DNA from: Candidatus Versatilivorator sp.
GTDB taxonomy: Bacteria > Acidobacteriota > Terriglobia > Versatilivoradales > Versatilivoraceae
NCBI GenBank assembly: GCA_965207735.1
Contig: OZ242296.1
Coordinates: forward strand, 3,448,782-3,512,781
Direction of reading: 5' to 3'
DNA length: 64,000 bases
Below the pieces are notes generated by a model. The model was not told the origin of the DNA. It saw nothing but the letters and a program-made list of their open reading frames with translations, and did no database searches. This document shows positions 4,057 through 38,365 of this stretch, piece after piece; position 1 is the first letter of the stretch, and each line of letters starts with the position of its first letter. The position numbers and the translations under genes were made by a program.

Positions 4057-4839
4057 TTGTCTGCCCCTGCCAAGGCTCCGGAACGCTTTCTGGGACGGGT
4101 CGAATACTATCGAAAGTATCGGCCCGGCTACCCCGAGGGCCTGCTCGAATGGCTGAAGGAACTGTCGGCCCTGAAACCTTCCCACCGCGTCGCCGACATC
4201 GGCTCCGGGACGGGCCTGCTGGCGGAGCTATTCCTGCGGCAGGGCTACCCGGTGGTGGGTGTCGAGCCCAATCCCGAGATGCGGCGGACGGCTGAATCTC
4301 ACCTGAAGCGCTACCCCCGCTTCCGGACCATCGATGGGCGAGCGGAAGCCACCACCCTCGGCAGCCGGTCGGTGGATCTCATCGTCGCCGGCCAAGCCTT
4401 CCACTGGTTCCCGATCGACCGCACCCGAGAGGAGTTCCAACGCATCACCAAACCTCCGGCCTGTGCGGTCCTGGCCTGGAACCAGCGCAAGACCGAAAGC
4501 ACGGGGTTCCTGAGGGCCTACGAGAAGTTGTTGCTGCGGCACGGCACCGACTACGCCCGGGTTCGCCACCAGAACATCGGCCAGCCCCAACTGCAGGCTT
4601 TCTTCGGTCCACAAGCAATTCACAACAAGACTCTGGCCAACTCTCAGGTCTTCGACCGGGAGGGCCTCATCGGGCGCACCCTCTCCTGCTCTTTCGTGCC
4701 GTTGCCCGGACAGCCGGGCCACCGGTCCCTGATGCGGGCGCTGGACCGGATTTTTAAGGAGTGGCAGGTCGAAGGAAGGGTTACCTTCGAATACGACACC
4801 CTGGTCTATGCCGGAAGGCTACACCCCAACCCGCGGTGA
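4057..4839 (+). CDS. class I SAM-dependent methyltransferase
   Basis: Motif I VADIGSGTGLLAELF with a methyltransferase type-11-like fold. Confidence 0.8.
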   Translation: MSAPAKAPERFLGRVEYYRKYRPGYPEGLLEWLKELSALKPSHRVADIGSGTGLLAELFLRQGYPVVGVEPNPEMRRTAESHLKRYPRFRTIDGRAEATTLGSRSVDLIVAGQAFHWFPIDRTREEFQRITKPPACAVLAWNQRKTESTGFLRAYEKLLLRHGTDYARVRHQNIGQPQLQAFFGPQAIHNKTLANSQVFDREGLIGRTLSCSFVPLPGQPGHRSLMRALDRIFKEWQVEGRVTFEYDTLVYAGRLHPNPR

Positions 4840-4966
4840 CTCGGCCAGCCCGGGGGACTGGCCCGGGAATGTATACTAACCGGCGCCTGGCGACGCCCCG
4901 GTAACACGCAGTGACACCCGCTGCCGGGCCAAAACGCCGAGCCTGTAGGCACTCCCCATCTCCCGG

Positions 4967-6370
4967 TTGACCCGGGATCTTAGTCCCATGACCGACTCGT
5001 CACCCGCGAACCGGACGGAAACGGATCTCGAACGTCTGGACAAGCAGACCCTGTGGCACCCCTTCACTCAAATGAAGGAGTGGATGGAATCTCCTCAACT
5101 GGTGATCGAGCGGGGCCGGGGAGTCTACTTGTACGACACCCGGGGAAGGAAGTATCTGGATGGAGTCTCTTCCCTTTGGGCCAACATTCACGGCCACTCC
5201 CACCCCCACATCGTGCGGGCCATCCGCCGCCAACTGGACCGCCTGGACCACAGCTCCCTGCTGGGGCTGACCAACGCTCCCGCGGCGCAACTGGCCGGTA
5301 AGCTGGTCGAGCTCACGCCCCCGAACCTGACCCGGGTCTTCTTTTCGGACGACGGAGCCACGGCCGTGGAGATCGCCCTCAAGATGTCGTTCCAGTACTG
5401 GAGAAACCAGGGGCGGCAATGGGACTCCAAGAAGACGTTCGTGGCCTTCTCCAACGCCTATCACGGGGATACCCTGGGGTCGGTGAGCGTGGGTGGGGTG
5501 CGGCTCTTCCACGAGGTCTTCCGGCCTCTTCTTTTCCCGACCATCAGGGTCCCCTATCCCTATTGCTACCGATGCCCGCTGGGAAAGCAGCCGCCGAACT
5601 GTGAGATCGACCAGCTCCGGGAATTCGAACAGGTGCTGCGGACCCGCCATCGCGAGATCTGCGGCGTGGTGGTGGAGCCCATGATTCAGGGGGCGGGGGG
5701 AATGGTGCCCATGCCCGATGGCTTCCTGGGGAAACTGACCGAGCTGACCCGGCGTTTCGGGGTTCACCTGATCCTGGATGAGGTGGCAACCGGATTCGGC
5801 AGAACCGGCAGGATGCTGGCCCTGGAACACGAGGGCGTCCAGCCCGATTTTCTGGCCCTGGCCAAGGGAATCACCGGCGGCACGCTGCCATTGGCGGCCA
5901 CCCTGACCAGCGAGGAGATCTTCGAGTCCTTTCTGGGGGAGTACGAGGAGTTCAAGTCCTTTTTTCACGGACACACCTACACGGGGAATCCGCTGGCCTG
6001 CGCGGCCGCCCTGGCCAACCTGGAGGTCTTCAGCAAGGAGAAGACTCTGCAGAAGTTGCAGGGGAAAATCACCTATCTGACCAAGGCGCTGCGGCGCATG
6101 TGGGAACTGCCCTGCGTCGGGGACGTGCGACAACTGGGGTTCATGGCGGGAATCGAGCTGGTGCGGGATCGCGGCAGCAGGCAGCCTTTTCCGCTGGGAC
6201 GCCGCATGGGACACCGAGTGGTTCTGCAGGCCCGGCGGCGCGGCGTCCTCCTGAGGCCCCTCGGCGACACCGTTGTGCTGATGCCCCCGCTGTCGATCAC
6301 CCGGCCCCAATTGAAAACGCTGGTGGAGGTTACCTACAATAGCATCCAGGCCGCTTGGGAAGAGGAGTGA
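4967..6370 (+). CDS. bioA: adenosylmethionine-8-amino-7-oxononanoate aminotransferase
   Basis: Class-III PLP aminotransferase. LWHPFTQ, SSLWANIHGHSHP, GGMVPMP, LILDEVATGFGRTG and the Lys region ALAKGITGG are BioA-typical. Confidence 0.85.
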   Translation: MTRDLSPMTDSSPANRTETDLERLDKQTLWHPFTQMKEWMESPQLVIERGRGVYLYDTRGRKYLDGVSSLWANIHGHSHPHIVRAIRRQLDRLDHSSLLGLTNAPAAQLAGKLVELTPPNLTRVFFSDDGATAVEIALKMSFQYWRNQGRQWDSKKTFVAFSNAYHGDTLGSVSVGGVRLFHEVFRPLLFPTIRVPYPYCYRCPLGKQPPNCEIDQLREFEQVLRTRHREICGVVVEPMIQGAGGMVPMPDGFLGKLTELTRRFGVHLILDEVATGFGRTGRMLALEHEGVQPDFLALAKGITGGTLPLAATLTSEEIFESFLGEYEEFKSFFHGHTYTGNPLACAAALANLEVFSKEKTLQKLQGKITYLTKALRRMWELPCVGDVRQLGFMAGIELVRDRGSRQPFPLGRRMGHRVVLQARRRGVLLRPLGDTVVLMPPLSITRPQLKTLVEVTYNSIQAAWEEE

Positions 6371-22214: not shown

Positions 22215-23975
22215 ATGCCTGACAGGAAAGATTCCGTTCCCAACCTCTCGCGCCGCCGGTTCATGCGAACCACCGTCCTGGCAGGCACGGCCCTGGGTCT
22301 TAACTCCGCGGCGCCCGGGTCCGCGGCGCCCGGGTCCGCAGCCGCCACTCCCCTGAAAAAGGCCCGGCGACCCGGAAAGTCCTTCACCGGAAAACGGCCG
22401 GAAGACTATCGGGTGGTGCTGCAGGACATCGGCGACCCCCTGCTGCGCATGCCCTGGCCACCCACCCCCGAGGGCCTGGTGGAAGGTTCGATCGGGGCGC
22501 TGAAGGACTCTGCCGTCAGCATGTACGCCTTCGGCATCAACCACGCCGGGGGCACCACCCACTGCTCCAAGCTCTACCCCATCATCGGCGAAGAACAGCC
22601 CGTCCTCAAAAGCGGCAACACGCTGCGGATGATGCAAGCCGTCCAGCGTCTGTGCGAGGCAGGACACGACCCCCTGACGCTCATGTGCGACGGCGGGCAC
22701 AAAGCCGGCCTGGACGTGTTCCTGCGCCTTCGCATGAACGATCACCACGACCGCTGGGGCGACCGGATCGGCCTGGACAAGCCTTCCCGACTTCCCAAGG
22801 ACCATCCGGCCGAGCCCTATTTCTACACGCCCAAGTGGAAACGGGAGCACCCCGAGTGGTTGATCGGAGATCGCCATGCTCCCTATCCCGACACCAGCTT
22901 CCAGTACATGCAGGCCAGCGCCGGCAACTACGCCATCGGTCCTTATCGCGACCTCATCTTCAACCTGGCTGCAGAGACCCTCACCCAATACGACTTGGAC
23001 GGGTTCGAGCTGGACTTCTTCCGGTCCCCCTTCCTCTTTCCCATCTATGAAGCCTACGTGCAGCGCCACGTGATGACCGAGCTGATCCGCCGCATCCGCC
23101 GGGTTGCCGACGAGCAGGCGGCCAAGCGAGGCCGGCCCATCTTCCTTTCCGCCCGGGTCCCGGCCACCGTCGACCTCTGCCTGCGCATCGGGATCGATCT
23201 GCCGGTCTGGTTCCAGGAGGGGTTGCTGGACATGGTGGTGGTCAGCAACGGACTCTCCCCCTTCAGCACCCCTTGGGCGGAGTTGTCCGGGTTGGGCGCC
23301 AAGCACGGCATTCCCGCTCTGGCCTGCTTTACCCATGCCCGGCCCACCCGGGAAGGCCGGGAATCGCTGCGGGCGGCCACCCACCGCGCCTTCTCCTCAG
23401 GGATCACGGGCATCCAGTTCTGGAACTACTTCTACCGCATGCCCCACTACCACCGGCCAGGAGAAAATCCCCTGGACCTGAGCTTTACCCACGATCTGGT
23501 CGATGCGGACCTGGTGAGAAACGGTCCCAAGAAATACCTGCTGGACGGCAGCCCTCACACCGGGAGCATATTGACCGGGACTTTCGGCCACGCCGAGTGG
23601 CCCGGACAGACTCCGATGATGATCGGACTTTCCACCGACGGCATCGGCCACCGGGTGGCCTTCGACATCGCCGACGACCTCGGCCGGTCCAAGCCCCAGG
23701 GGTCTCCGCGGGTCTGGATCCGCATCGTGGATCTGGCTCCCGAGGATCGATTGGAATTCGCCTGGAACGGCAAGCCGATTCAACCCGATCCCAAAGCCTT
23801 TGCCGGAATCATCCTGAAGGACAGCCACGAATTCGAGTTCGAGCTCGATCCCGCCGACGTGCGGCCCGGCGAGAACCACCTGGAGATCAAGCTGCTGGAG
23901 CGGCACGCCCGGCTCGATCCCTACGTTACCCTGGTGGACGGGCGTTTGAGCATCCCCGAATTGAAGGGCGCCTGA
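22215..23975 (+). CDS. Tat-secreted TIM-barrel glycoside hydrolase-like protein (paralog A)
   Basis: Tat motif SRRRFMRTTVLAG. Conserved blocks RMNDHHD, YDLDGFELDFFRSPF, and GIQFWNYFYR shared with the paralog at 29581-31260. C-terminal beta-sandwich tail. Confidence 0.6.
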   Translation: MPDRKDSVPNLSRRRFMRTTVLAGTALGLNSAAPGSAAPGSAAATPLKKARRPGKSFTGKRPEDYRVVLQDIGDPLLRMPWPPTPEGLVEGSIGALKDSAVSMYAFGINHAGGTTHCSKLYPIIGEEQPVLKSGNTLRMMQAVQRLCEAGHDPLTLMCDGGHKAGLDVFLRLRMNDHHDRWGDRIGLDKPSRLPKDHPAEPYFYTPKWKREHPEWLIGDRHAPYPDTSFQYMQASAGNYAIGPYRDLIFNLAAETLTQYDLDGFELDFFRSPFLFPIYEAYVQRHVMTELIRRIRRVADEQAAKRGRPIFLSARVPATVDLCLRIGIDLPVWFQEGLLDMVVVSNGLSPFSTPWAELSGLGAKHGIPALACFTHARPTREGRESLRAATHRAFSSGITGIQFWNYFYRMPHYHRPGENPLDLSFTHDLVDADLVRNGPKKYLLDGSPHTGSILTGTFGHAEWPGQTPMMIGLSTDGIGHRVAFDIADDLGRSKPQGSPRVWIRIVDLAPEDRLEFAWNGKPIQPDPKAFAGIILKDSHEFEFELDPADVRPGENHLEIKLLERHARLDPYVTLVDGRLSIPELKGA

Positions 23976-24442: not shown

Positions 24443-26650
24443 ATGTCGTTTCGACTGAACAGCAATAGCCGCCGTCAACTCCTGCTGGCTCTGCTGCTGA
24501 TTGGCCTGGCAGCCTTCTGCCATCGGCAGGAAGCGCCGCCGGATGCCAATCCGGCCAGGGCCCCCGCCGCCCTCCAGGACCTCTACGGCATCTTCAGCCA
24601 TGAGATCAGACCCGAGGCGGTCGGCAACGTCTACCAGGCGGTGGGCAATCGCTTCCAGTTGGAGGGAAAGCTCTACGCCGCGGTCCTGAAGGCCCTCAAT
24701 GCCTACGACATCCTGCAGGAGACCACCCGCCTGCCCGAAGCCGACCGGGAACGGCTGCTGCCCAGAAGCCGGCAGGAAGCCAGCGAGGCGTTTGCCGCTC
24801 TGAAAGAATCCCTGGACTGGCCCCGCATTCGGATCGAGGTGGGTGCTGAGGAATTTGCGCTCCAGAGTCTTCCCCAGCTCGACCTTTACCGGGAAATCCC
24901 GCAGCCGATTCTGCTCACGCTTCACAACTCCACTTCCGAGACCAGAATGCTTTCTCTCGGGAGTTCCGGTCTGAGGCTGGAGGTGGACACCCTGGAGGTG
25001 GCTCCCTCGGCCACCCGGCATCTGCTGGCCCAAATCGATTCCCCCGAGACCGGGGAGGGTGCGGCCTGCCTTTCAGTGACGTCCGAGGGAAGGAGCGTGA
25101 CCTGGCGCCTCCCCTTCCGGGTCGCGGAATCCGGTCTGCTGGAGGGGCGGCTGGTGGAGTCTGAGGGCGGCGTCCCCACCATCGGCCGGATTCGAGTGAC
25201 TGACGAGGAAGGGCGTTACCGAGCACCACTCGAGGCCGGCTACGGTTTGGTTCTGCGTCCGCGGAGGGATCCCGCCCGCTGGAGCTATGCTTCAGGAAAC
25301 TTCCGCCTGCGAGCCCCGGCCGGCAAGATCCGGATTTCCATCCGGCGCGGCCTGGAATATCTACCCATCGACGAGGATCTCGATCTGGAGGCCGGTCAGA
25401 CCCTGCGTCGCACTTTTTCGCTCAACCGGTGGGCAAACATGGAGCGGGAGGGCTGGCATTCCGGAGACACCCACATCCACATGCTGGATCCGCCCAGCGC
25501 CCTCTTCGAGATGCAGGCGGAGGACCTGCGGGTCGGCAATGTCCTCGTGCTGGAACATATGGGAAAGACCTACTCCAGGGAGCACTTCCGGGGCGAGCTG
25601 GACCCGATTTCCGATCCCCGGCACCTGGTCTACTACAACCAGGAGTACCGCAACCAGACCCTGGGCCACGTCAGCCTACTCAACCTCAAGAAGCTGGTGG
25701 AGCCCATCTCCACCGGCGGACTGGCCGTTCCCGAGACCACCGTTTACCGCTATTCCTACCTGAGACCCTCCCGCAAGGGGTTCCCCCGCCACGGCCAGGC
25801 CGGCTGGCCCGACGCCCTGGTGCTGGACGCCATGCGGGAAACCCACCGGCAGGGAGGGTTGGTGAACTGGGCCCACCTGCGTCCTGCCCAACTCGAGTTC
25901 CCCATCGACATGGTCTTCGGCGGGATCGACACCGCCGACATCCTGACCCACACCCGGTTGCCGCAAACCCTGAAGCTCTGGTACGACCTGTTGAATTGCG
26001 GCTTCCGCTTGCCCGCCACTGCAGGAACCGACCGCATCGCGCCCGAGGAGCCGGTGGGGCATCAGAGGGTCTACGTCAAGCTGCACGGCCCGCTCACCTA
26101 CCCCGCATGGATGGAAGGACTGCGCCTGGGCCGCTCCTTCGTGACCAACGGACCCATGGTGAGCCTTGCGGTGGACGGCCGGGGGCCCGGAGAGACATTG
26201 ACGCTCAGCAACCCCAAGGTCCTTCGCATCCAGGCCCGGGGGCGCTCCCTGCGGCCCTTTGAGCGGCTGGAGATCGTGGTCAACGGGAAGGTGGCGGCCA
26301 GCGTTCCGGCTCAAGAACAGGGCCGCCGCGCGGAACTCAGTCTCGATTATCCGGCCGACCGGAGCCTGTGGATTGCGGCGCGCTGCATGGGGGGATCCCC
26401 CGAAGAAGCCTCCATCTGGACCCATCCCCTGTTCGCCCACGCCAACCCGGTATATATCGACTATCCGGGAAGGGACCTGGCTGAGGCCGAGAGCGCATGC
26501 TATCTGCTCGACTTCCTGAAGCCGCTGGAGAAGTGGGCTCGCGAGGAAGCCTACTTCGAGAACCCGGCACAGAAGGACCGGGCTCTGGCCACCATCCGCC
26601 AGGGCATGGATTTCTACCGCCGCCTGTGTAACGGCGAAGGCAAGAACTGA
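24443..26650 (+). CDS. CehA/McbA-family metallohydrolase (PHP-like) with N-terminal domain
   Basis: Signal peptide. Central GWHSGDTHIHM and LVNWAHL His-rich metal motifs are typical of the CehA/McbA family. Confidence 0.6.
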   Translation: MSFRLNSNSRRQLLLALLLIGLAAFCHRQEAPPDANPARAPAALQDLYGIFSHEIRPEAVGNVYQAVGNRFQLEGKLYAAVLKALNAYDILQETTRLPEADRERLLPRSRQEASEAFAALKESLDWPRIRIEVGAEEFALQSLPQLDLYREIPQPILLTLHNSTSETRMLSLGSSGLRLEVDTLEVAPSATRHLLAQIDSPETGEGAACLSVTSEGRSVTWRLPFRVAESGLLEGRLVESEGGVPTIGRIRVTDEEGRYRAPLEAGYGLVLRPRRDPARWSYASGNFRLRAPAGKIRISIRRGLEYLPIDEDLDLEAGQTLRRTFSLNRWANMEREGWHSGDTHIHMLDPPSALFEMQAEDLRVGNVLVLEHMGKTYSREHFRGELDPISDPRHLVYYNQEYRNQTLGHVSLLNLKKLVEPISTGGLAVPETTVYRYSYLRPSRKGFPRHGQAGWPDALVLDAMRETHRQGGLVNWAHLRPAQLEFPIDMVFGGIDTADILTHTRLPQTLKLWYDLLNCGFRLPATAGTDRIAPEEPVGHQRVYVKLHGPLTYPAWMEGLRLGRSFVTNGPMVSLAVDGRGPGETLTLSNPKVLRIQARGRSLRPFERLEIVVNGKVAASVPAQEQGRRAELSLDYPADRSLWIAARCMGGSPEEASIWTHPLFAHANPVYIDYPGRDLAEAESACYLLDFLKPLEKWAREEAYFENPAQKDRALATIRQGMDFYRRLCNGEGKN

Positions 26651-26706
26651 CCGGACGGCCGCCTTCGACTCTTGTGGCCCGCTGCCTCAACTATCCGAGG
26701 AATCCC

Positions 26707-28893
26707 ATGACCCCCTCAGCCAAACTCAGCCTGATCCTGCTGATCTGCCTGACCGTTGGTTCCTGCGCCCGGTCCACTGACGGCCCGACCCCAACGGGAA
26801 ACGATGGGGCGGGAAACTGGAAACGGGACCAGCGCAGCTTCGTCTACCTCTCGGAGAGACGCGCCCGCTATGCCGGGATCACCCGCACCGCCGAGGGCCG
26901 GCTGCTGACCCTGTTCACCCACCAGACGGCGCAACAGGAGCGGGACGGCTCGGGAGATCTCCAACTGGTGCGCAGGACCCGCGACGGGGATTGGTGGTTT
27001 TATCCGGAGACGATATTCGAAGGCCGCCAGGGAGAACCCCGGGCCATGGGCACCCTGACCACCCTGGAATCCGGCCGCATCATCGCCCCCTTCGCCGAGC
27101 TGAACGACGGCGCCGCCGGCAGCCGGCTGCGGATGCTGGCTTCCGAGGACCACGGCGAAACCTGGACAGCCAGTGCGCCCCTGGGGACCCACCCCCTGAC
27201 TTGGGCCATGCCCTATGGAAGACCCTTCGAGGCGGGCGACCGGGTGCTGATGCCTGTCCACGGGGCCGTCAGCCAGGAAGACCTGGCGGCCACCCGACTG
27301 CAGACGGGCCTGCTGCAATCCACCGATGGCGGCAAGAGCTGGGGGGATTGGATGCCGATTGCGGTTCCCGGCCCGGAGGCGGACCTCAGCTACGAATTTC
27401 CGGCGGTGCTGCCCCTGAAGGACGGGACCTGGCTGGCGGTCCTCACCCAGAGGCAGTTGAAGAAGCGTCCCGGGCTGCCCCTGGACATTCCGCAGACGCT
27501 GGTGCGGTCCTACAGCACCGACCAGGGCCGGAGCTGGACCCGACCCGAGCCCCTGTGCGTCGGCTCCTGGGCCAGCCTGACCCCCATGGGCGACGGCACG
27601 GTGGCCTGCTCCTTCGCCCTCTGGTCGGCCTGGGGCAGCATGGAAGTCATGTTCAGCGACGACGGCTTTCGAACCATCGGCCACCGGACCCCCTTCGTGG
27701 AACACAACTGGCTGCCGGGCTTTGGACCCAGCGGTTGGGGCGGAGGCTGGGCCCGGGATCCCATTCCCCTGCCGCCGGTGGTCCCCAACCTGCAAGGGGA
27801 CTGGAAGGCCGGCCACTATGGGTTTTCCTCCGGCTTGGCTCTGGACGAGGACCGCTTGATGCTGGTGCTGGGACAGCGGCAAAAGGGAAGCGGCTACACC
27901 GACCCTCCCCACGAAGTGAACCTTCCCATCGAGAAGGAGCGGATCGAGACCATTGTCATGAAGCGGGTGCAGAAGCCCGCGGCCCCGGCCGCCGAAACTC
28001 CCCGTGCCCATGGTGAGCCGGACGGGCAATGGTATCTGGCCGAGAGATGGCCCGAGGAGGAGTGGCGCCGGAAAGTCGGGCAGCCGCCCAACGACGTGAC
28101 CCTGGTGCTCAAGTCGGGGCGCTGGATACGCCTCACCGCCCAATACACCGTTCCCCACCAGCACGGACCCGGCAGAATCCTGGGGCGGGAGCGGGGCTAC
28201 TGGGTCTGGAAGTCGATCGACGGCCTCCACTACCGGACGCACCTGCAAGGCTCCTATTCCGATGATCAGGGGAAGACCTGGAAACAGGCCAAGGTGGAGG
28301 ACCCGGTGCCGCTGGCCGCGGCCGTGCACCTGGGGGGTGTGGCCTTTGAAGAGCCGGATGGAACCCTGGTGGCTCCCGTCTACGGCTACCTGAACCAGGA
28401 CGACATGTCGGTCTCCCTCTACGTCTCCGCCCTGGTGAGGTCCCACGACGGAGGCGCATCCTGGAGCGACTGGAGCATCATCGCCTTCGACCGGAAGGAC
28501 CGCTACACCGCCTACAGCGAGACCCAGGTCATGGCCCTCTCAGATGAGACCTGGGTGGCCTTTCTCCGCAGCGAAAACCGCAGCTACGTCCCGGTAATGA
28601 GGGCCGTCATCTCCCGAACCCTCAGCACCGACCGGGGAAGGACCTGGAGCCCGCCCCAACCCACTGCCGCGGCCGGTGTGACGGCCGGACTGCGGCTGCC
28701 GGACGGAGGCATTGCCCTGTCGGCTCAGAACACCTGCGGCTGGGGGCTGGCGGTCACCTACAACTACGGCCACACCTGGAACTACGTGCTGCCTGCCACC
28801 TACTTCTCGGCCCGGGCCGGCGTGATCGACGACAAGTCCTTCTGGCTCCACGACGCCCACGGGGGGATCGTGTCCATCTACCGCAGGCCCTGA
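26707..28893 (+). CDS. BNR/Asp-box repeat sialidase-like glycoside hydrolase (lipoprotein)
   Basis: Lipobox LTVGSC. Five Asp-box motifs (STDGGKSW, STDQGRSW, SDDQGKTW, SHDGGASW, STDRGRTW). Confidence 0.75.
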   Translation: MTPSAKLSLILLICLTVGSCARSTDGPTPTGNDGAGNWKRDQRSFVYLSERRARYAGITRTAEGRLLTLFTHQTAQQERDGSGDLQLVRRTRDGDWWFYPETIFEGRQGEPRAMGTLTTLESGRIIAPFAELNDGAAGSRLRMLASEDHGETWTASAPLGTHPLTWAMPYGRPFEAGDRVLMPVHGAVSQEDLAATRLQTGLLQSTDGGKSWGDWMPIAVPGPEADLSYEFPAVLPLKDGTWLAVLTQRQLKKRPGLPLDIPQTLVRSYSTDQGRSWTRPEPLCVGSWASLTPMGDGTVACSFALWSAWGSMEVMFSDDGFRTIGHRTPFVEHNWLPGFGPSGWGGGWARDPIPLPPVVPNLQGDWKAGHYGFSSGLALDEDRLMLVLGQRQKGSGYTDPPHEVNLPIEKERIETIVMKRVQKPAAPAAETPRAHGEPDGQWYLAERWPEEEWRRKVGQPPNDVTLVLKSGRWIRLTAQYTVPHQHGPGRILGRERGYWVWKSIDGLHYRTHLQGSYSDDQGKTWKQAKVEDPVPLAAAVHLGGVAFEEPDGTLVAPVYGYLNQDDMSVSLYVSALVRSHDGGASWSDWSIIAFDRKDRYTAYSETQVMALSDETWVAFLRSENRSYVPVMRAVISRTLSTDRGRTWSPPQPTAAAGVTAGLRLPDGGIALSAQNTCGWGLAVTYNYGHTWNYVLPATYFSARAGVIDDKSFWLHDAHGGIVSIYRRP

Positions 28894-28944
28894 GCCGGCG
28901 CTTCTCACCCGCTGCGCCGCTCGCCCCAAACCCTGGCACTGCAT

Positions 28945-29725
28945 GGAGACAGATTATTGTAATGATAGTCGCCAGGCGGCAGCCTGGAGCTCCAGTAAGC
29001 CGCCAAGGCGGCGGCAGCAGGTAGCCGTGGGCGTAAGCCCATGGAAAACTAAGCGCTTACGTTGAGCCGCGTAGGCGGCGGCAGCAATCCCCCGGCCAGG
29101 AATGCTGACTAGGTCCGCAGGCCGACCTCAGGCAGCCGGCGAGTACCTGACCGTGAGCCAGACCCCGCGCAGCCTCAGCCCGTCCCGGCGCCTGCCGCCC
29201 TTTTCAACCCGGACCTCCAGCCGATTCATCCCCTGGCGGACCCTTGCCGCTTGAACCGGACAGCGCTGGGGACGTTGTTGAATTGCTGGAATAAGTTGTA
29301 AAGAGTGCGTAGGAAACGCCATTGAATCAAAGCAATGCAGGGGCGGCTCATCGAAGTTATTCCAGTAATTCAACAACGTCCCCAATTCACGCTGCGTGGA
29401 GACAGATTATTGTAATGATAGTCGCCAGGCGGCAGCCTGGAGCTCCAGTAAGCCGCCAAGGCGGCGGCAGCAGGTAGCCGTGGGCGTAAGCCCATGGAAA
29501 ACCAAGCGCTAGCATTGAGCCGCGTAGGCGGCGGCAGCAATCCCCCGGCCAGGAATGCTGACTAGGTCCGCAGGCCGACCTCAGGCAACCGGAGGGTACT
29601 TGACCGTGAGCCAGACCCCGCGCAGCCTCAGCCCGTCCCGGCGCCTGCCGCTCTTTTCCACCCGGACCTCCAGCCGATTGATTCCCTGACGGACCGTTTC
29701 CGCTTGAACCGGGCAGCCAAGGCGC
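28945..29725. repeat. tandem duplication (~300 bp x2, period 452) of the 3' end of the 29581 gene, with a hairpin element at the junction
   Basis: Unit A 28945-29267 and unit B 29397-29725 are ~95% identical (tggagacagattattgtaatgatagtcgcc...). Each contains the sub-repeat agccgc[cg][at]aggcggcggcagca. The junction carries a 27-bp-arm hairpin, ggggacgttgttgaattgctggaataa (29268-29294) with ttattccagtaattcaacaacgtcccc (29357-29383). Confidence 0.7.
29128..29385 (-). pseudogene. chimeric ORF created by the tandem duplication (duplicate C-terminal 43 aa of hydrolase paralog B)
   Basis: The C-terminus PVQAARVRQGMNRLEVRVEKGGRRRDGLRLRGVWLTVRYSPAA copies the C-terminus of the 29581 gene. The N-terminus is read from the hairpin element. 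Confidence 0.5.
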
Positions 29726-31260
29726 TCCAGGTCTTCCGGAGCATCCTCCCCGGCGGGCTCGCCGGCTTCAAATGCCAGCTCCTCTCCATTGAGGCGGCCA
29801 GCGACCCGTTCCCCAAGGCTAAGGCCTTCCACCTCCAGCTCCAGGCGGACCCCGGCCGGCCGGCCCGAGCGCCCGGCGGCCTCCAGGTCATCGCCCACCG
29901 GCAGCTCAACCGCGGCGGCCGGCCCCGGATTGCCCCGGCTCAGCTCCAGGGGAAGCTGGCCCGGGTGGCTGGCGATGGCGTAGGGTCCGATGTCCTGGAT
30001 GTAGTCCACCCCGAAGCGCTTGTCCCGAAACTGCAGGCTTGAGGCCGACTGAATATCCTCCAGAAGCCCGTAGGCATCGGGTACCGGCCGGCCGTAGGCC
30101 AGCATGGGCACCTGGCGGTAGTGGTAGTTCCAGAGATAGATCCCGTCGGCTCCGGCCGAGAAGATATTGGAGGCCGCACCCCGCATGGTCTCATCCGAAC
30201 CAAACACCTTCAGGCCGCAGTTGATGCAAGGGTAGACGGGAACCTCGTGGCGGTGCCCCAGCGTCACCAGCTCCCGGGCCGGATTGGTGAAGACCGTGTA
30301 TCCCCCGCCGATCAGCATCCGGTCCACCCAACCCTGCTTGAGCCAGGTCTCCACATCCAGACCGATGCCATTGCAGGCCGCCAGGGTCCCCGGAACCCTG
30401 ACGCCCAGAAGCAGGGGCCTTTGACGGGATTCCGACACCTTCCTCACAATCCGGTGAGCCCCCTGGATCAGGTTGTTCATCAGAGCCGCTCCCGCTTCCT
30501 CCTCCCCGGGCTTGAAGTACCAGGGCATGCGGAAGAAGTTCAGGTCCACCCCGTCCAGGTCGTAGTTCTCGGCGGTGTGACGGACCCACCACAGCCGGTC
30601 CTCCCGCACTTCCGGTATGGCGAAATTCAGGCCGGACCACCTGGCCGCCTCCAGGGTGGTGAAGGGGCTTCCCTTCTGGCTCTGCTCTCCCAGCAGCCAC
30701 TCCGGATGGGCCACCTTCGGGGGATAGACCAGCTTCCCTTCAGGCATCCCGAAGGCATCGTGGGTGTCGTTCATGCGGATCGACCCGAAGACCTCCAGTC
30801 CGTGGCGGTGGATGCCCTCGGCCATGACGGGCGTCGGATCGTGGATGGCCTCATTGAGCGGCCGGTCCTGCTGCTGGGTCTGCCAGTAGCGGGTCTGTCC
30901 GGGACCCTGGGCGATGCCCCACATGATGCACCAGGCGATGCTGTCCACCGGCGTCCCCAGGATGGGCTCGAGGCGCAGCCCCAGAAAAGCCTCGGCTCCC
31001 TTGGCCGCCTCGGGGTCGTAGACCAGGTCCCCGTCGTCATCCAGGATCAGCCGCCGCCCGCGTTCCACCGCCCTGCGCCGCGCCTGCTCGAGCCCCTCCT
31101 GCCTCCCCGCGCAGCCCGGCAGTCCGGCCAGCCAGGAGCCTCCCGCCAGGGCCCCGGCCGTCCCCAGGAAACGCCGGCGAGTCAAAGCCGCCGGCTTCCG
31201 CCCTTTTACGATTCCGTCATCGATCCTCATGGGTCCTCCGGTATCCAGCATGTATCGCAT
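29581..31260 (-). CDS. Tat-secreted TIM-barrel glycoside hydrolase-like protein (paralog B), with N-terminus fused to a vapC start remnant
   Basis: Tat motif TRRRFLGTAGALAG, then RMNDTHD, YDLDGVDLNFFRMPWYF, and GIYLWNYHYR. In-frame upstream codons MRYMLDTGGP resemble a VapC N-terminus (MLDTN..). That ATG overlaps the vapB stop by 1 nt. An alternative start is MRIDDG at 31230. Confidence 0.6.
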   Translation of the reverse strand: MRYMLDTGGPMRIDDGIVKGRKPAALTRRRFLGTAGALAGGSWLAGLPGCAGRQEGLEQARRRAVERGRRLILDDDGDLVYDPEAAKGAEAFLGLRLEPILGTPVDSIAWCIMWGIAQGPGQTRYWQTQQQDRPLNEAIHDPTPVMAEGIHRHGLEVFGSIRMNDTHDAFGMPEGKLVYPPKVAHPEWLLGEQSQKGSPFTTLEAARWSGLNFAIPEVREDRLWWVRHTAENYDLDGVDLNFFRMPWYFKPGEEEAGAALMNNLIQGAHRIVRKVSESRQRPLLLGVRVPGTLAACNGIGLDVETWLKQGWVDRMLIGGGYTVFTNPARELVTLGHRHEVPVYPCINCGLKVFGSDETMRGAASNIFSAGADGIYLWNYHYRQVPMLAYGRPVPDAYGLLEDIQSASSLQFRDKRFGVDYIQDIGPYAIASHPGQLPLELSRGNPGPAAAVELPVGDDLEAAGRSGRPAGVRLELEVEGLSLGERVAGRLNGEELAFEAGEPAGEDAPEDLERLGCPVQAETVRQGINRLEVRVEKSGRRRDGLRLRGVWLTVKYPPVA

Positions 31261-31499
31261 CAAAACGCGACTCGGCAGCCATCCGTCAACTCGGGACGGT
31301 CGGCCATGAAATCCTCCCCCACGGGAGGCGCTTCCTCGGCATAGGATGTCCACGTCTTGCGAAGCGGCGCAATGACCAATGCCTCACCTTCCTTGCGGAT
31401 TATCACCTCATCCACACCCTCGAACCGAAACGCTTTCGGAATTCGAACGGCCTGACTGCGACCGTTGAAAAACAGCTTGGCGGTAGCTTGCATAACCAC
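31260..31499 (-). CDS. vapB: VapB-type antitoxin (AbrB/SpoVT fold), orphan
   Basis: AKLFFNGRSQAVRIPKAFRF ... DFMADRPE matches VapB/MvpA-type antitoxins end to end. No intact vapC follows. Confidence 0.7.
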   Translation of the reverse strand: MVMQATAKLFFNGRSQAVRIPKAFRFEGVDEVIIRKEGEALVIAPLRKTWTSYAEEAPPVGEDFMADRPELTDGCRVAF

Positions 31500-31759
31500 T
31501 CCTCGACTCGGACTGACACCGTAACTGCATCGCAGCCTATATCACAGGAATTTGCCAAAGAGCAAAAAGACGCAAGAAACCGCTCTGAGAAGGTTGGCAA
31601 GACTTCTTCGCGTCTTCATGCGCACCACACGCCTGGAGACCGTATGGAGAACAGGGAGAACAATTGATCCGACTGCCCGGAGCGGATTATTTGCTTTATG
31701 ACCCGGTTCATGGCATAAGTAAATAAGAAAATCGTCAAGTACGAAAAAGGTATTGTGAT

Positions 31760-32029
31760 ATGAAAAAAAACAAGGACACCTCATCCAGGAAAGGCGGATT
31801 GGATCTTGTGAGGGTCCGGCGGGCAGGGCAGATTACGCTGTCCCGCAAGGTGCGGGAAGCCATGAATCTGGGAGAGGGCGACTACTTGGAACCCCGGTTC
31901 ACGGAAGGCGGTGTCTTGCTGCGGCCAGTGAGTGTACGCTCTCGGGAACCGTCGGCGGCTCAGGAAGCGGAGATTTTGGATGTAGTGAACCAGGAACGCC
32001 GGAAGTATGCCAAAGAGCGCCGTCATTGA
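31760..32029 (+). CDS. AbrB/MazE-family antitoxin
   Basis: Small basic protein with a SpoVT/AbrB-like core (VRVRRAGQITLSRKVREAMNLGEGDYL). Overlaps the downstream PIN gene by 23 nt. Confidence 0.55.
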   Translation: MKKNKDTSSRKGGLDLVRVRRAGQITLSRKVREAMNLGEGDYLEPRFTEGGVLLRPVSVRSREPSAAQEAEILDVVNQERRKYAKERRH

Positions 32030-32438
32030 TACCTCCGTTTTGGTGAGTGCCTTTCTGTTTCGGGAGAGTGTGCCTGGACGGGTCATTGAACTTGCTGAGC
32101 GGAACGTTTACACCCTTTATCTTTCCCCGATTTTGATGGAAGAAGTGACGCGGTCACTTCACCATCCGCGCCTGCAAAAGGCCTATGGGTATGCGGACGC
32201 GGATGTGCGAGTCTGGTGTCACACTTTGAAGACAATTGGGACGGTGTGGAAAAAGGCATTGCCGGACATTGGGTCTGTGTGTCGTGATCCTGATGATGAA
32301 CATGTGATCGCGTGCGCGCATGTCGTGGGTGCGTCGTGGATAGTAACAGGCGATCATGACTTGCTTGACCTTGAGGGGTATAAGGGAGTGCGAATCGTGT
32401 CTGCCCGAACGTTCCTGGAAGAAATGGCGGTTCTGTAG
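32007..32438 (+). CDS. PIN-domain toxin (VapC-like)
   Basis: AVIDTSVLVSAF (acidic residue D7), a conserved E in MEEVTR, and distal acidic residues DPDDEHVIACA...TGDHDL. Confidence 0.75.
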   Translation: MPKSAVIDTSVLVSAFLFRESVPGRVIELAERNVYTLYLSPILMEEVTRSLHHPRLQKAYGYADADVRVWCHTLKTIGTVWKKALPDIGSVCRDPDDEHVIACAHVVGASWIVTGDHDLLDLEGYKGVRIVSARTFLEEMAVL

Positions 32439-32763: not shown

Positions 32764-35928
<3,165 letters not shown>

Positions 35929-36271: not shown

Positions 36272-38365
36272 GGTGATATTAGCCCATCTTTAACACGGCT
36301 TCCAAGTATACGTTTATTATCAACAGGTTACAAAAGGCTCAACGCGCAAGTGGCACTACAAACGCGTTGAAACCGGAGATTTTGGAGGAATCAGACGATC
36401 ATCTTGCGGATCCCTCCAGGAGAGGGATCGATGCCCAGGGCGTCGTAGATGGCCCTCTGATCGGGTTCGGCCCGTGTGGCCTTGCGGACGTGCAAGGTCC
36501 GCCCGTCCTGACGCCGGAAGGTGACCGTGACCCGCTGCTGTCCTTCCAGGATGCGCCGCAGCGTGGTCCAACTGGAGGCCTCGCCGCGCTGCTTGAGGCG
36601 TTTGCGGATGACCTGCACCAGTTGATAGGCGATGACCGTCAGAAACAGGTGACCTTCCGAGCGCACCGGCTTGTGATGATAGATGGGCCGCAGGCCCAGC
36701 TCGGACTTCAGGGAGCGAAACACCGCTTCCACGTCGGTCAGAGTCGTGTAGGTACGCCAGAGACTTTCCTCGTCCCAGTCAGTCTGGTTGCTGCGCAGGC
36801 AGTAGACCCCCGGATGGGTGGCCATCGAGCCCTGGCGGGGACGGTGCTTCCATCTCAGCGCTGTCGCCTTGCGGCCGCTCTCGTCGGTGAGGACCTCGAT
36901 GCTGTAGTGTTGCCCCACCCCGCGGCTCTGTTCCTTCAGCCGCCCGATCCTCTCCCGGACCTTCTCGACGCCTTTGTGAGTCCGCGGCCGGGAAAGCCCC
37001 TCGGAGAGTCGGGTGAGCCCCTGCTCGAAGCGCCGGCTGAAGCGCTCCACGATGCCCTTCTCCTTCTCAGCCCGCTGCTGTGAGCGGCAGTAGAGACGCA
37101 CTTCCTGCCCGTCGTCGGAGATCTCCTTGTGGAGCTGCAGCTCGGCCTTGGAAGCCGTCTCCACCGTCACGGCCGCCTCGGCATCGAACTGCCTCCGGCC
37201 CTGGCGGCTGGCCACCAGGTAGCGATACCCTTCCTCCCTCAACCACTGGATCCGGTCCTCGGTCGCCACCCCCCGATCCATCACCACCAAGGCTCCCCGG
37301 GGCGCCTCCAGCGCCTCCAGCATCCCCTCCAGGGTGCGGGGCTCATCCACCCTACCGGCAAAGACCTCCGAGCGGCGCACAAACCCCGCCCCGTCCAGCA
37401 CCAACCCCAGCGTCAGCAGCCGACAGTCGCTGCGCTTGTCCTTCGAGTGGCCCCGCTCGGCCTTGGGCTGATGGCTGGCCGCCCCTTCGAAGAAGGTGTT
37501 GGTCAGATCGAACAGGGTGACGGTCGGCTCCAGATCGAACAACCCCATGGCCCGGGTGAAGAGGTGACGCTCGATGGCCTCCCGATGCTTCATCAGCGCG
37601 TCCGAGGCCCGATACATCTGCATCAGACTCAGGCTCTCGAAGTCAACCTCCAGCAACTCGCCCAAGCCGCTGCGCCGCCTGAGCCAGCCCCAGGTGGCCC
37701 TCTCCGAGCCCGGTCGGGCCAGACGGCCTACCATGGCCCCCAACGCCGCTGCCCGCATCGGTCCGTTCAGCCCTAACTCGGTCAGCAGATCCCCCAGCCC
37801 CAACTGCTCCAGCGCCCAGCAACCGACCTGCTCCACCCCCACGCTGCGCGGACGTGTCAAGGCCACCGAATCCACCTCGACCGTCTGCAGGTCCTCTGAG
37901 GCGGCCTCCCCGCCAACGCCGGTCACGTCGGCTTCGCCCTCAAGCAAGCGCTGGGCCATGCGTTGGGCTTCCTCCTCCAACGGGGTGGAAGCCACCGGCA
38001 AGAGAGGCAACTGACCGGTGAGGATCTGATCGAGACGGCGGCACAACAAGGGCCAGTCCTCACGGGGGATCGAGAAGTGTCGACCGAGGTTGAGGAGGGT
38101 CTGCTGGCGGACCTTGCCACTGACGCGATGGGAGCGGACGAGGCGGTGGGTGAAGTAGGTCTGTCCGGAATGGAGGCTGCGGGTCTGGGTGCGTCGGATG
38201 AACATGGGAGGGACGCTACCAGAGGAGAGAGAGGGGGTCAAGCCCATCCCATACGATTATGGCACTACATTCACCTCCTCAACCAAGAATCAACAACTTA
38301 CGGGTGGTTTTAGGCTAAAATGGGGGTAAAATACCTCAAATCGGCCGTTTCTTTGTTAAAGATGG
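36272..38365. mobile_element. IS1634-family insertion sequence
   Basis: Imperfect terminal IRs: tagcccatctttaaca (36275-36290) with tgttaaagatgggtta (38346-38361 on + strand). A single transposase gene lies inside. Inserted between the DUF2806 stop (38371) and hsdR. Confidence 0.55.
36391..38247 (-). CDS. IS1634/IS4-family transposase
   Basis: 618 aa. FDLTNTFFEG DDE region and typical IS1634 length and architecture. Confidence 0.8.
   Translation of the reverse strand: MGLTPSLSSGSVPPMFIRRTQTRSLHSGQTYFTHRLVRSHRVSGKVRQQTLLNLGRHFSIPREDWPLLCRRLDQILTGQLPLLPVASTPLEEEAQRMAQRLLEGEADVTGVGGEAASEDLQTVEVDSVALTRPRSVGVEQVGCWALEQLGLGDLLTELGLNGPMRAAALGAMVGRLARPGSERATWGWLRRRSGLGELLEVDFESLSLMQMYRASDALMKHREAIERHLFTRAMGLFDLEPTVTLFDLTNTFFEGAASHQPKAERGHSKDKRSDCRLLTLGLVLDGAGFVRRSEVFAGRVDEPRTLEGMLEALEAPRGALVVMDRGVATEDRIQWLREEGYRYLVASRQGRRQFDAEAAVTVETASKAELQLHKEISDDGQEVRLYCRSQQRAEKEKGIVERFSRRFEQGLTRLSEGLSRPRTHKGVEKVRERIGRLKEQSRGVGQHYSIEVLTDESGRKATALRWKHRPRQGSMATHPGVYCLRSNQTDWDEESLWRTYTTLTDVEAVFRSLKSELGLRPIYHHKPVRSEGHLFLTVIAYQLVQVIRKRLKQRGEASSWTTLRRILEGQQRVTVTFRRQDGRTLHVRKATRAEPDQRAIYDALGIDPSPGGIRKMIV

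Follow-up and report, generated by a model that had tools for sequence, protein, structure and literature searches.

Type II toxin-antitoxin (TA) modules of the Shigella MvpAT and Leptospira VapBC type consist of an AbrB/SpoVT-type antitoxin, VapB, and a tRNA(fMet)-specific PIN toxin, VapC. Orphan antitoxins and degraded TA remnants have been surveyed in the Klebsiella pneumoniae complex, Bartonella pVbh, and M. tuberculosis, and the roles discussed for orphan antitoxins are those of remnant, regulator, and anti-addiction module (PMC7354431). The vapB gene considered here lies on the minus strand of a 64,000-nucleotide stretch of Candidatus Versatilivorator sp. (contig OZ242296.1, positions 3,448,782 to 3,512,781; hereafter the window, with positions counted from its first letter). 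It is joined, through the start codon of a lost vapC, to the gene of a GH156-like exosialidase homologue. The window vapB is a member of the MvpAT/VapBC type and shares with it the TGATG overlap and the toxin N-terminus MRYMLDT. Unlike in those modules, the toxin gene is gone except for 22 nt, and the locus is no addiction or stress module on its own.

As in the known orphan antitoxins, there is an antitoxin open reading frame (ORF) without an adjacent toxin, and it demonstrably comes from an intact pair; each of the three roles discussed for that class is a candidate here too. What sets the window apart from them is that the exact junction and the ancestral state are recovered, as is an intact allele that coexists with the deletion allele. 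In addition, the allele is found in several species-level lineages, purifying selection on it can be measured, and the toxin start is in frame with the next gene. The locus is a clean, well-polarised case of a known class, toxin-first TA decay, and no new kind of system. In such decay the loss of vapC would be harmless, and the loss of vapB first would be lethal. With a probability of roughly 85%, a deletion of ~450 nt removed vapC in a toxin-first decay, vapB is still under selection, and the sialidase gene is co-transcribed with it and is translated mainly from its native ATG. It is an unusually well-documented decay, since the ancestral state, the breakpoint, and the descendant allele are available, the two alleles coexist, and relaxed selection is measurable. 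It thus offers a natural system for asking why orphan antitoxins are kept, whether as regulator, as anti-addiction module, or as relic. A further use would be to see if promoters of TA modules come to drive nearby metabolic genes, in this case that of a candidate sialidase in a glycan-degradation cluster.

Ancestry of the vapB locus

The features at the centre of the locus are listed below; locus numbers beginning with L refer to relatives.

31263 to 31493, minus strand: vapB, an intact orphan antitoxin gene of 77 aa, with its stop codon TGA at 31262-31260
31239 to 31260, minus strand: vapC remnant, the first 22 nt (~7 codons, MRYMLDT), whose ATG (31260-31258) shares one base with the vapB stop
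31238 to 31239, minus strand: deletion junction ACCG/GAGGA, one G ambiguous, placed by alignment with L017 and L013
31234 to 31239, minus strand: GGAGGA, native Shine-Dalgarno sequence of the sialidase gene, retained, and read as Gly-Gly in the extended frame
29584 to 31230, minus strand: GH156-like exosialidase homologue of 549 aa (559 aa if read from the vapC ATG), with its stop codon at 29581-29583

The comparison drew on the contigs that carry VapB homologues and on homologues of the downstream protein from species-representative genomes. The relatives are marine Acidobacteriota metagenome-assembled genomes labelled 'Candidatus Versatilivorator', Versatilivoraceae, or Terriglobia. Several isolate labels, read as labels alone, look sponge-derived. 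A literature search under 'Versatilivorator' gave no result. Fourteen loci are intact (L007-L015, L017, L018, L021, L022, and L024). Their gene order is HsdR, a divergent AbrB/PIN_3 pair, a 127-aa TPR gene, vapB, a 136-aa PIN vapC, the 549-aa gene, and a convergent BNR_2 gene. The intact vapC begins ATGCGATACATGCTGGATACCGATATTTGC (MRYMLDTDICSY), encodes MRYMLDT(D/A)ICSY, and overlaps the vapB stop as in the window. The VapC proteins of the relatives match tRNA(fMet)-specific VapC models with E=1.5e-32, at scores under the equivalog cut-offs of those models. The spacer between vapC and the hydrolase gene is 55, 73, or ~235 nt long.

The window VapB scores 83.2 bits against NCBIfam NF040493 (TA_anti_VapB), above the cut-off of 60, and is a member of that family. 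It also matches Pfam MazE_antitoxin (PF04014; 35.6 bits, cut-off 24.7) and the VapBLeptosp model (78.6 bits). Its 77 aa are the length of nearly all VapB homologues among the 120 listed. The start is placed at ATG 31493 and not at GTG 31499, because the 77-aa homologues begin MQATAKL and the Shine-Dalgarno sequence GAGGAG (31504-31499) stands 5 nt ahead of that ATG. No VapC-like sequence was found in the window by tblastn with the VapC of relatives as query (E<=1e-3). At the place 3' of vapB where a cognate PIN toxin gene would complete the module, 22 nt of vapC are left; the overlapping stop and start of a complete module are present (TGATG, 31262-31258), as in the intact relatives. With its intact ORF, missing toxin, and ancestry by synteny, the gene is an orphan antitoxin from a degraded TA pair.

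The remnant, ATGCGATACATGCTGGATACCG, is identical to the first 22 nt of the intact vapC at the orthologous locus of relatives. The same 22 nt open the intact vapC of L007-L010, L014, L015, L017, L021, L022, L024, and L183, and the 5' end of vapC in L011-L013 differs at one position. After the shared 22 nt, the window skips to GAGGACCCATG. Compared with L017, 450 nt are missing (nt 5543-5992 of that locus), and compared with L013, a net 436 nt. The right breakpoint lies one base 5' of the GGAGGA of the sialidase gene, where the native leader of L017 reads ...GTGGAGGATACATGGAAAG. L017, with its intact vapC, carries GTGGAGGATACATG at the GGAGGA position. The GGAGGA of the window is the native ribosome-binding site, because the right flank equals the native leader of L017. 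Microhomology at the junction amounts to a single G.

At the level of sequence comparison, the alignments show the ancestral gene order and a single deletion as the origin of the window allele. The ancestor carried the TPR gene, vapB, vapC, and the GH156-like sialidase gene in that order on one strand. One deletion of ~450 nt then removed vapC from codon 8 through the spacer before the sialidase gene. The reverse polarity, an insertion of vapC, is ruled out by the 22 nt of vapC that the deletion allele keeps. An assembly artefact is ruled out as well, since the junction occurs in independent assemblies, in several samples, and in three species-representative genomes.

The distant hydrolases also bear on the origin of the prefix. 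Outgroup proteins start at the equivalent of MRIDDG (for example, MMIDEGVVRR..SRRRFLG in L025), and for this reason the MRYMLDT prefix is not part of the enzyme family. Tblastn detected neither VapB nor VapC with hydrolase homologues of 45-62% identity, and the two upstream regions inspected among them, those of L028 and L051, are free of TA modules. In the outgroup L025, whose hydrolase is 77% identical, a MazE/MazF-like pair (5274-5938, same strand) stands directly upstream of the orthologous sialidase gene. The site upstream of the sialidase gene is therefore a recurrent landing site of TA modules.

A first-pass annotation of this DNA, made from the sequence alone, had proposed an orphan vapB joined in frame to a hydrolase gene through the vapC start, and the synteny with the 14 intact loci supports it. 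The intact vapB with the C-terminus ...DFMADRPELTDGCRVAF stands; the span of 31260-31499, in which the start is the GTG at 31499 given by the ORF list, gives way to the ATG start above. The one-base overlap of ATG and vapB stop (TGATG) is as described. So are the amino acids that follow, with codons 2 and 3 reading CGA TAC and not the synonymous CGC-TAT. The likeness of MRYMLDT to a vapC start, which a hydrolase of the same N-terminus in relatives without vapBC would have made coincidental, is no coincidence: the 22 nt are identical to the orthologous intact vapC, the comparison with vapBC-bearing relatives favours a vapBC origin, and distant homologues without vapBC lack the prefix. The idea that the hydrolase gene had displaced the body of vapC has to be dropped, because relatives already have that gene immediately downstream of an intact vapC. 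It was the deletion of ~450 nt that took vapC from codon 8 onward together with the spacer.

Translation and transcription of the sialidase gene

The closest described relative of the downstream protein is EnvSia156 (PDB 6RZD; PMC6811678, PMC6254351), a GH156 inverting exosialidase. By phmmer, residues 195-525 of the window protein align with residues 161-488 of the 6RZD chain (E=1.5e-23, ~330 residues), and the equivalents of Trp164, Arg202, Arg246, and the NY..Q segment (Asn346/Gln351) are aligned and conserved. The roles in EnvSia156 are Asp14 and His134 as catalytic residues and Arg129/Arg202/Asn346 as the carboxylate triad (PMC6811678). In the same numbering, RMNDTHD fits the spacing of Arg129/Asp132/His134 and DDDGDLVY that of Asp14/Tyr20, which is a match of motif spacing in the N-terminal third, a part left unaligned by phmmer. 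Pfam gives a sub-threshold GHL10 match only. The two proteins differ in that identity over the aligned part is an estimated ~30% and that Phe203, Phe278, and Trp279 of the aglycone pocket are replaced by Met, Gly, and Tyr. The window protein, a predicted sialidase, also bears a twin-arginine-type leader. This consists of the motif TRRRFLG (nt 31162-31182) and a hydrophobic stretch ending in LPGC, with a possible lipobox Cys. Pfam TAT_signal reaches 12.9 bits, under the cut-off of 22.7 (E=0.11).

The frame from the vapC ATG reads ATG CGA TAC ATG CTG GAT ACC GGA GGA CCC ATG, that is, MRYMLDTGGP and then M. This last codon is the native sialidase ATG (31230-31228), 30 nt past the vapC ATG. It is followed by MRIDDGIVKGRKPAALTRRRFLG... 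and by no stop until 29581-29583. A continuous ORF from the upstream start into the downstream gene is present in the window and in all deletion haplotypes. That the vapC ATG is in frame with the sialidase ATG is chance, at 1 in 3.

Gene callers applied to the relatives place the start at the equivalent of the native ATG, which gives 549 aa. Across the deletion haplotypes, TGATGCGA (ATGCGA) and GGAGGA are invariant. Codons 3-7 and 10 of the remnant vary freely and non-synonymously among them, and the frame stays open in all. The versions are MRYMLDTGGP, MRNMLDTGGY, MRNMLETGGY, MRNMLDTGGN, MRKILDTGGP, MRYMQKNGGS, MRYKLGTGGF, and MRYMLDTGGC. No Shine-Dalgarno sequence was seen ahead of the vapC ATG in the junction region; the native ATG retains its own. 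Because GGAGGA is native and invariant in the deletion haplotypes, the native ATG is probably the main start, and most translation of the sialidase gene would probably begin there. Should ribosomes re-initiate at TGATG, the already hypervariable region before the twin-arginine motif would be longer by ten unconstrained residues (MRYMLDTGGP), which should be tolerated.

Several points of the first-pass annotation are affected. Its open frame from the vapC ATG straight into the hydrolase gene is confirmed, and its suggestion that the hydrolase is translated from the vapC ribosome-binding context conflicts with the retained, invariant GGAGGA. As a Tat-secreted hydrolase the protein is a candidate, with the TRRRFLG motif and the hydrophobic region present; with Pfam TAT_signal under its cut-off, the Tat call is one of motif only. 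The consequences that the annotation proposed, autoregulation by the antitoxin alone or hydrolase expression driven by the vapB promoter, are plausible.

It could also be that the fusion is functional. The sialidase would then be made mainly from the vapC ATG by termination-reinitiation coupling, as a 559-aa precursor produced in stoichiometric proportion to VapB. In every deletion haplotype, the extended frame has no stop and the two ATG codons stay 30 nt apart, and the spacer of the intact alleles differs in length, so this region takes indels when it is non-coding. The invariance of ATGCGA next to five variable codons also fits. However, an absence of stops and indels over 10 codons is weak evidence, and at the amino-acid level the ten added codons are not conserved. 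In the deletion haplotypes the native GGAGGA never varies and lies 3-4 nt ahead of the native ATG, at precisely the distance seen in L017, and the vapC ATG is without a Shine-Dalgarno sequence. Folding of the junction RNA of four haplotypes gave structures no more stable than shuffled sequence (z-scores +0.4 to +1.4), and nothing in the fold calls for coupling. The idea of a coupling hairpin in which the ribosome-binding site is hidden was dropped on the same ground. A functional fusion is therefore unlikely, if still among the more credible of the alternatives, and translation chiefly from the native ATG is preferred.

No sequence is left between vapB and the ribosome-binding site of the sialidase gene. 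Transcription of the latter must therefore enter from vapB or from upstream of vapB. A short box there could be a candidate extended -10 element of the vapB promoter, judging by its position and conservation.

31536 to 31546, minus strand: box TGTGATATA(G/C), 43-53 nt upstream of the vapB ATG, kept in 9/9 aligned haplotypes

Most likely, one transcript from the vapB promoter covers both vapB and the sialidase gene. In the proposed course of events, it would be read from that promoter and translated mostly from its native ATG.

Persistence of the deletion allele and selection on vapB

The same junction and the same 30-nt spacing of the two ATG codons are present in the window and in L001-L006, L016, L019, L020, L178-L182, and L184. 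These represent 10 distinct deletion haplotypes, the window and 9 others. Among the carriers are three GTDB species representatives and one Tara scaffold, and the VapB proteins of the carriers share 80-97% identity with the window VapB. Both alleles coexist within samples ERZ25067264 and ERZ25072670. This shows that the deletion allele persists across several species-level lineages, alongside the intact allele.

Selection on vapB was followed by pairwise omega (Nei-Gojobori) and by parsimony counts of non-synonymous (N) and synonymous (S) changes on the branches of a neighbour-joining tree. Pairwise omega is 0.03-0.15 among intact alleles versus 0.20-0.72 among deletion alleles, at similar dS (0.14-0.27). 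The branch counts are as follows.

Branches with only deletion haplotypes below: N=45, S=33, omega ~0.42, binomial P=1.7e-4 against neutrality
Branches with only intact haplotypes below: N=9, S=20, omega ~0.14, binomial P=2.5e-7 against neutrality

The two sets of branches differ (Fisher P=0.017), and independent pair contrasts agree. Purifying selection on vapB thus continues after toxin loss, with the reservation that the parsimony counts could be biased by recombination. The AbrB-type DNA-binding core, GRSQAVRIPKA(Y/F)RF, is nearly invariant. From these counts it is inferred that the orphan vapB is under relaxed but real purifying selection. VapB is probably still a DNA-binding protein that represses its own promoter.

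A vapB without any function, which persists for lack of time or as the DNA that holds the sialidase promoter, is a doubtful explanation, somewhat more so than a functional fusion. It has in its favour that omega is about three times that of the intact alleles and that the codons of the vapC remnant drift freely, and a survey in Klebsiella took the majority of orphan antitoxins for remnants of degraded TA modules (PMC7354431). Against this, all 10 deletion haplotypes keep the 77-codon ORF with its start, stop, and ribosome-binding site at a dS of 0.14-0.27. Neutrality is rejected by the branch test above, and the DNA-binding core has hardly changed.

The orphan VapB could instead be kept for anti-addiction. 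It would neutralise VapC in trans, whether from an intact allele that arrives by homologous recombination or from a paralogue, and the linkage to the sialidase gene would be incidental. The occurrence of both alleles in the same samples, the mosaic flanks that indicate recombination between haplotypes, and an omega below 1 after toxin loss are all consistent with this possibility. Orphan antitoxins have also been treated as candidate anti-addiction modules (PMC7354431). There is no VapC homologue in the window, which speaks against it. For vapC paralogues on the chromosomes that carry the deletion, a VapC homologue search whose listing omits some contigs gave no match.

The distribution of changes within VapB points the other way as well. 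In VapB proteins, the C-terminal part is the toxin-binding part. Non-synonymous changes on the deletion branches number 25 in the 32 C-terminal codons versus 20 in the 45 N-terminal codons. They are thus denser in the presumed toxin-binding end, the opposite of what anti-addiction predicts. On balance this role is improbable, about as much so as the functional fusion. A combined version is a little less probable again: vapB and its autoregulated promoter would have been co-opted as an expression leader of the secreted GH156-type sialidase, which would be transcribed in step with VapB and in part translated so by TGATG re-initiation, and the toxin-less allele would be kept beside the intact one within the same symbiont populations since VapB also immunises against re-acquisition of the toxin.

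Several observations weigh against the preferred reading, that of a single old deletion followed by relaxed selection on a vapB that is co-transcribed with the sialidase gene. A check for monophyly of the deletion haplotypes found them interleaved with intact haplotypes in the 231-nt vapB tree, which is poorly resolved, and found the hydrolase gene to be mosaic, so that the event cannot be dated from these comparisons. Gene conversion from intact alleles could pull the omega of vapB below 1. The invariance of ATGCGA could stem from constraint on the context of the vapB stop and not from use of the ATG. Finally, a sigma-70 consensus scan of the window and L013 detected no promoter for vapB or for the hydrolase gene, and none inside vapC or the spacer of intact alleles, although sigma-70 and terminator consensus scans are uninformative for Acidobacteria.

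The interleaving and mosaicism together indicate that recombination has shuffled the flanks. The interleaving in the vapB and hydrolase comparisons could also be taken to mean that vapC was lost repeatedly, by recurrent or programmed site-specific excision, and not in one inherited event. However, the microhomology of 1 nt is all that the junction offers, and no flanking repeats or recombinase sites were seen in the aligned junction and flanks. The 231-nt tree has poor resolution, and homologous recombination around one old deletion is the better explanation of the mosaicism. Recurrent excision is highly improbable, far more so than any of the other alternatives.

A metagenome scan for the junction with the degenerate pattern AWGCTGGRYACCGGAGGA returned 120 loci. 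None of them encodes VapB, VapC, the TPR protein, or the hydrolase, and they were set aside as chance matches to a pattern that is too short. In L183 (2501-3111), a close VapB (P0011) is followed by a shortened VapC-like ORF of 125 aa without a Pfam match. Its surroundings differ, with Peptidase_S24 and SPL genes and no sialidase gene. This context suggests that this vapBC also moves between loci.

Surroundings of the locus

Upstream of vapB, on the same strand, the 127-aa TPR gene is reduced to a remnant.

31542 to 31619, minus strand: remnant of the TPR gene, a 25-codon micro-ORF of MKTRRSLANLLRAV joined to SCVFLLFGKFL and a stop, from alignments with L013, L017, and L022

A second internal deletion, of ~305 nt and with its junction near 31577-31580, has affected this gene in most deletion haplotypes, including the window. 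In L178, which carries the vapC deletion, the TPR gene is intact, so the two deletions are separate events. The TPR gene is also damaged in some alleles that keep vapC: in L015 (~4700-5250), only TPR residues 69-127 are left and the 5' part is replaced by foreign sequence. In L022 (4426-5126), likewise with vapC, ~370 nt are inserted between the TPR gene and vapB.

On the other side of this remnant lies a complete TA pair, which is divergent from vapB and belongs to another family than the lost vapC.

31760 to 32438, plus strand: complete TA pair of an AbrB/SpoVT-type antitoxin (31760-32029) and a PIN_3 toxin (32007-32438), assigned by Pfam and NCBIfam

The vapB gene stands at the edge of a variable defence/mobile island. 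In addition to the AbrB/PIN_3 pair, this holds a 1054-aa type I restriction HsdR (32764-35928, minus strand) and a DDE_Tnp_1 transposase (36391-38247, minus strand). Between HsdR and PIN_3, nearly all related contigs have a content of their own, with IS110, DDE_3, and ISAZ013 transposases and HicB.

In the direction of the sialidase gene, there are other genes possibly related to glycan use. A 30%-identical paralogue of the GH156-like protein is encoded at 22215-23975 (plus strand), a 735-aa protein without a Pfam family at 24443-26650 (plus strand), and a BNR_2 sialidase-fold protein at 26674-28893 (plus strand). With the focal gene included, the group resembles a sialoglycan-degradation cluster.

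The spacer between the hydrolase and BNR_2 genes is 688 nt long in the window versus 12-65 nt in L001 and L008. A tandem duplication (28939-29691) is present here, with two 300-nt copies that are 95% identical and spaced by 453 nt. It takes in the final 110 nt of the sialidase-like gene as well as 189 nt beyond the gene, and a copy of the 3' end, a pseudo-3'-end, lies at 29128-29238. Identical sub-threshold matches to the Rfam sRNA Acido-Lenti-1 (30.1 bits, gathering score 37, E=5e-4) are found on the minus strand at 28998-29044 and 29451-29497, one per duplicated copy and just downstream of the sialidase gene. Between the duplicated copies, at 29260-29395, is a long near-perfect inverted repeat (hairpin). 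A plant miRNA model matches both strands of this segment, which was taken as spurious. The inverted repeat may be a small MITE-like insertion.

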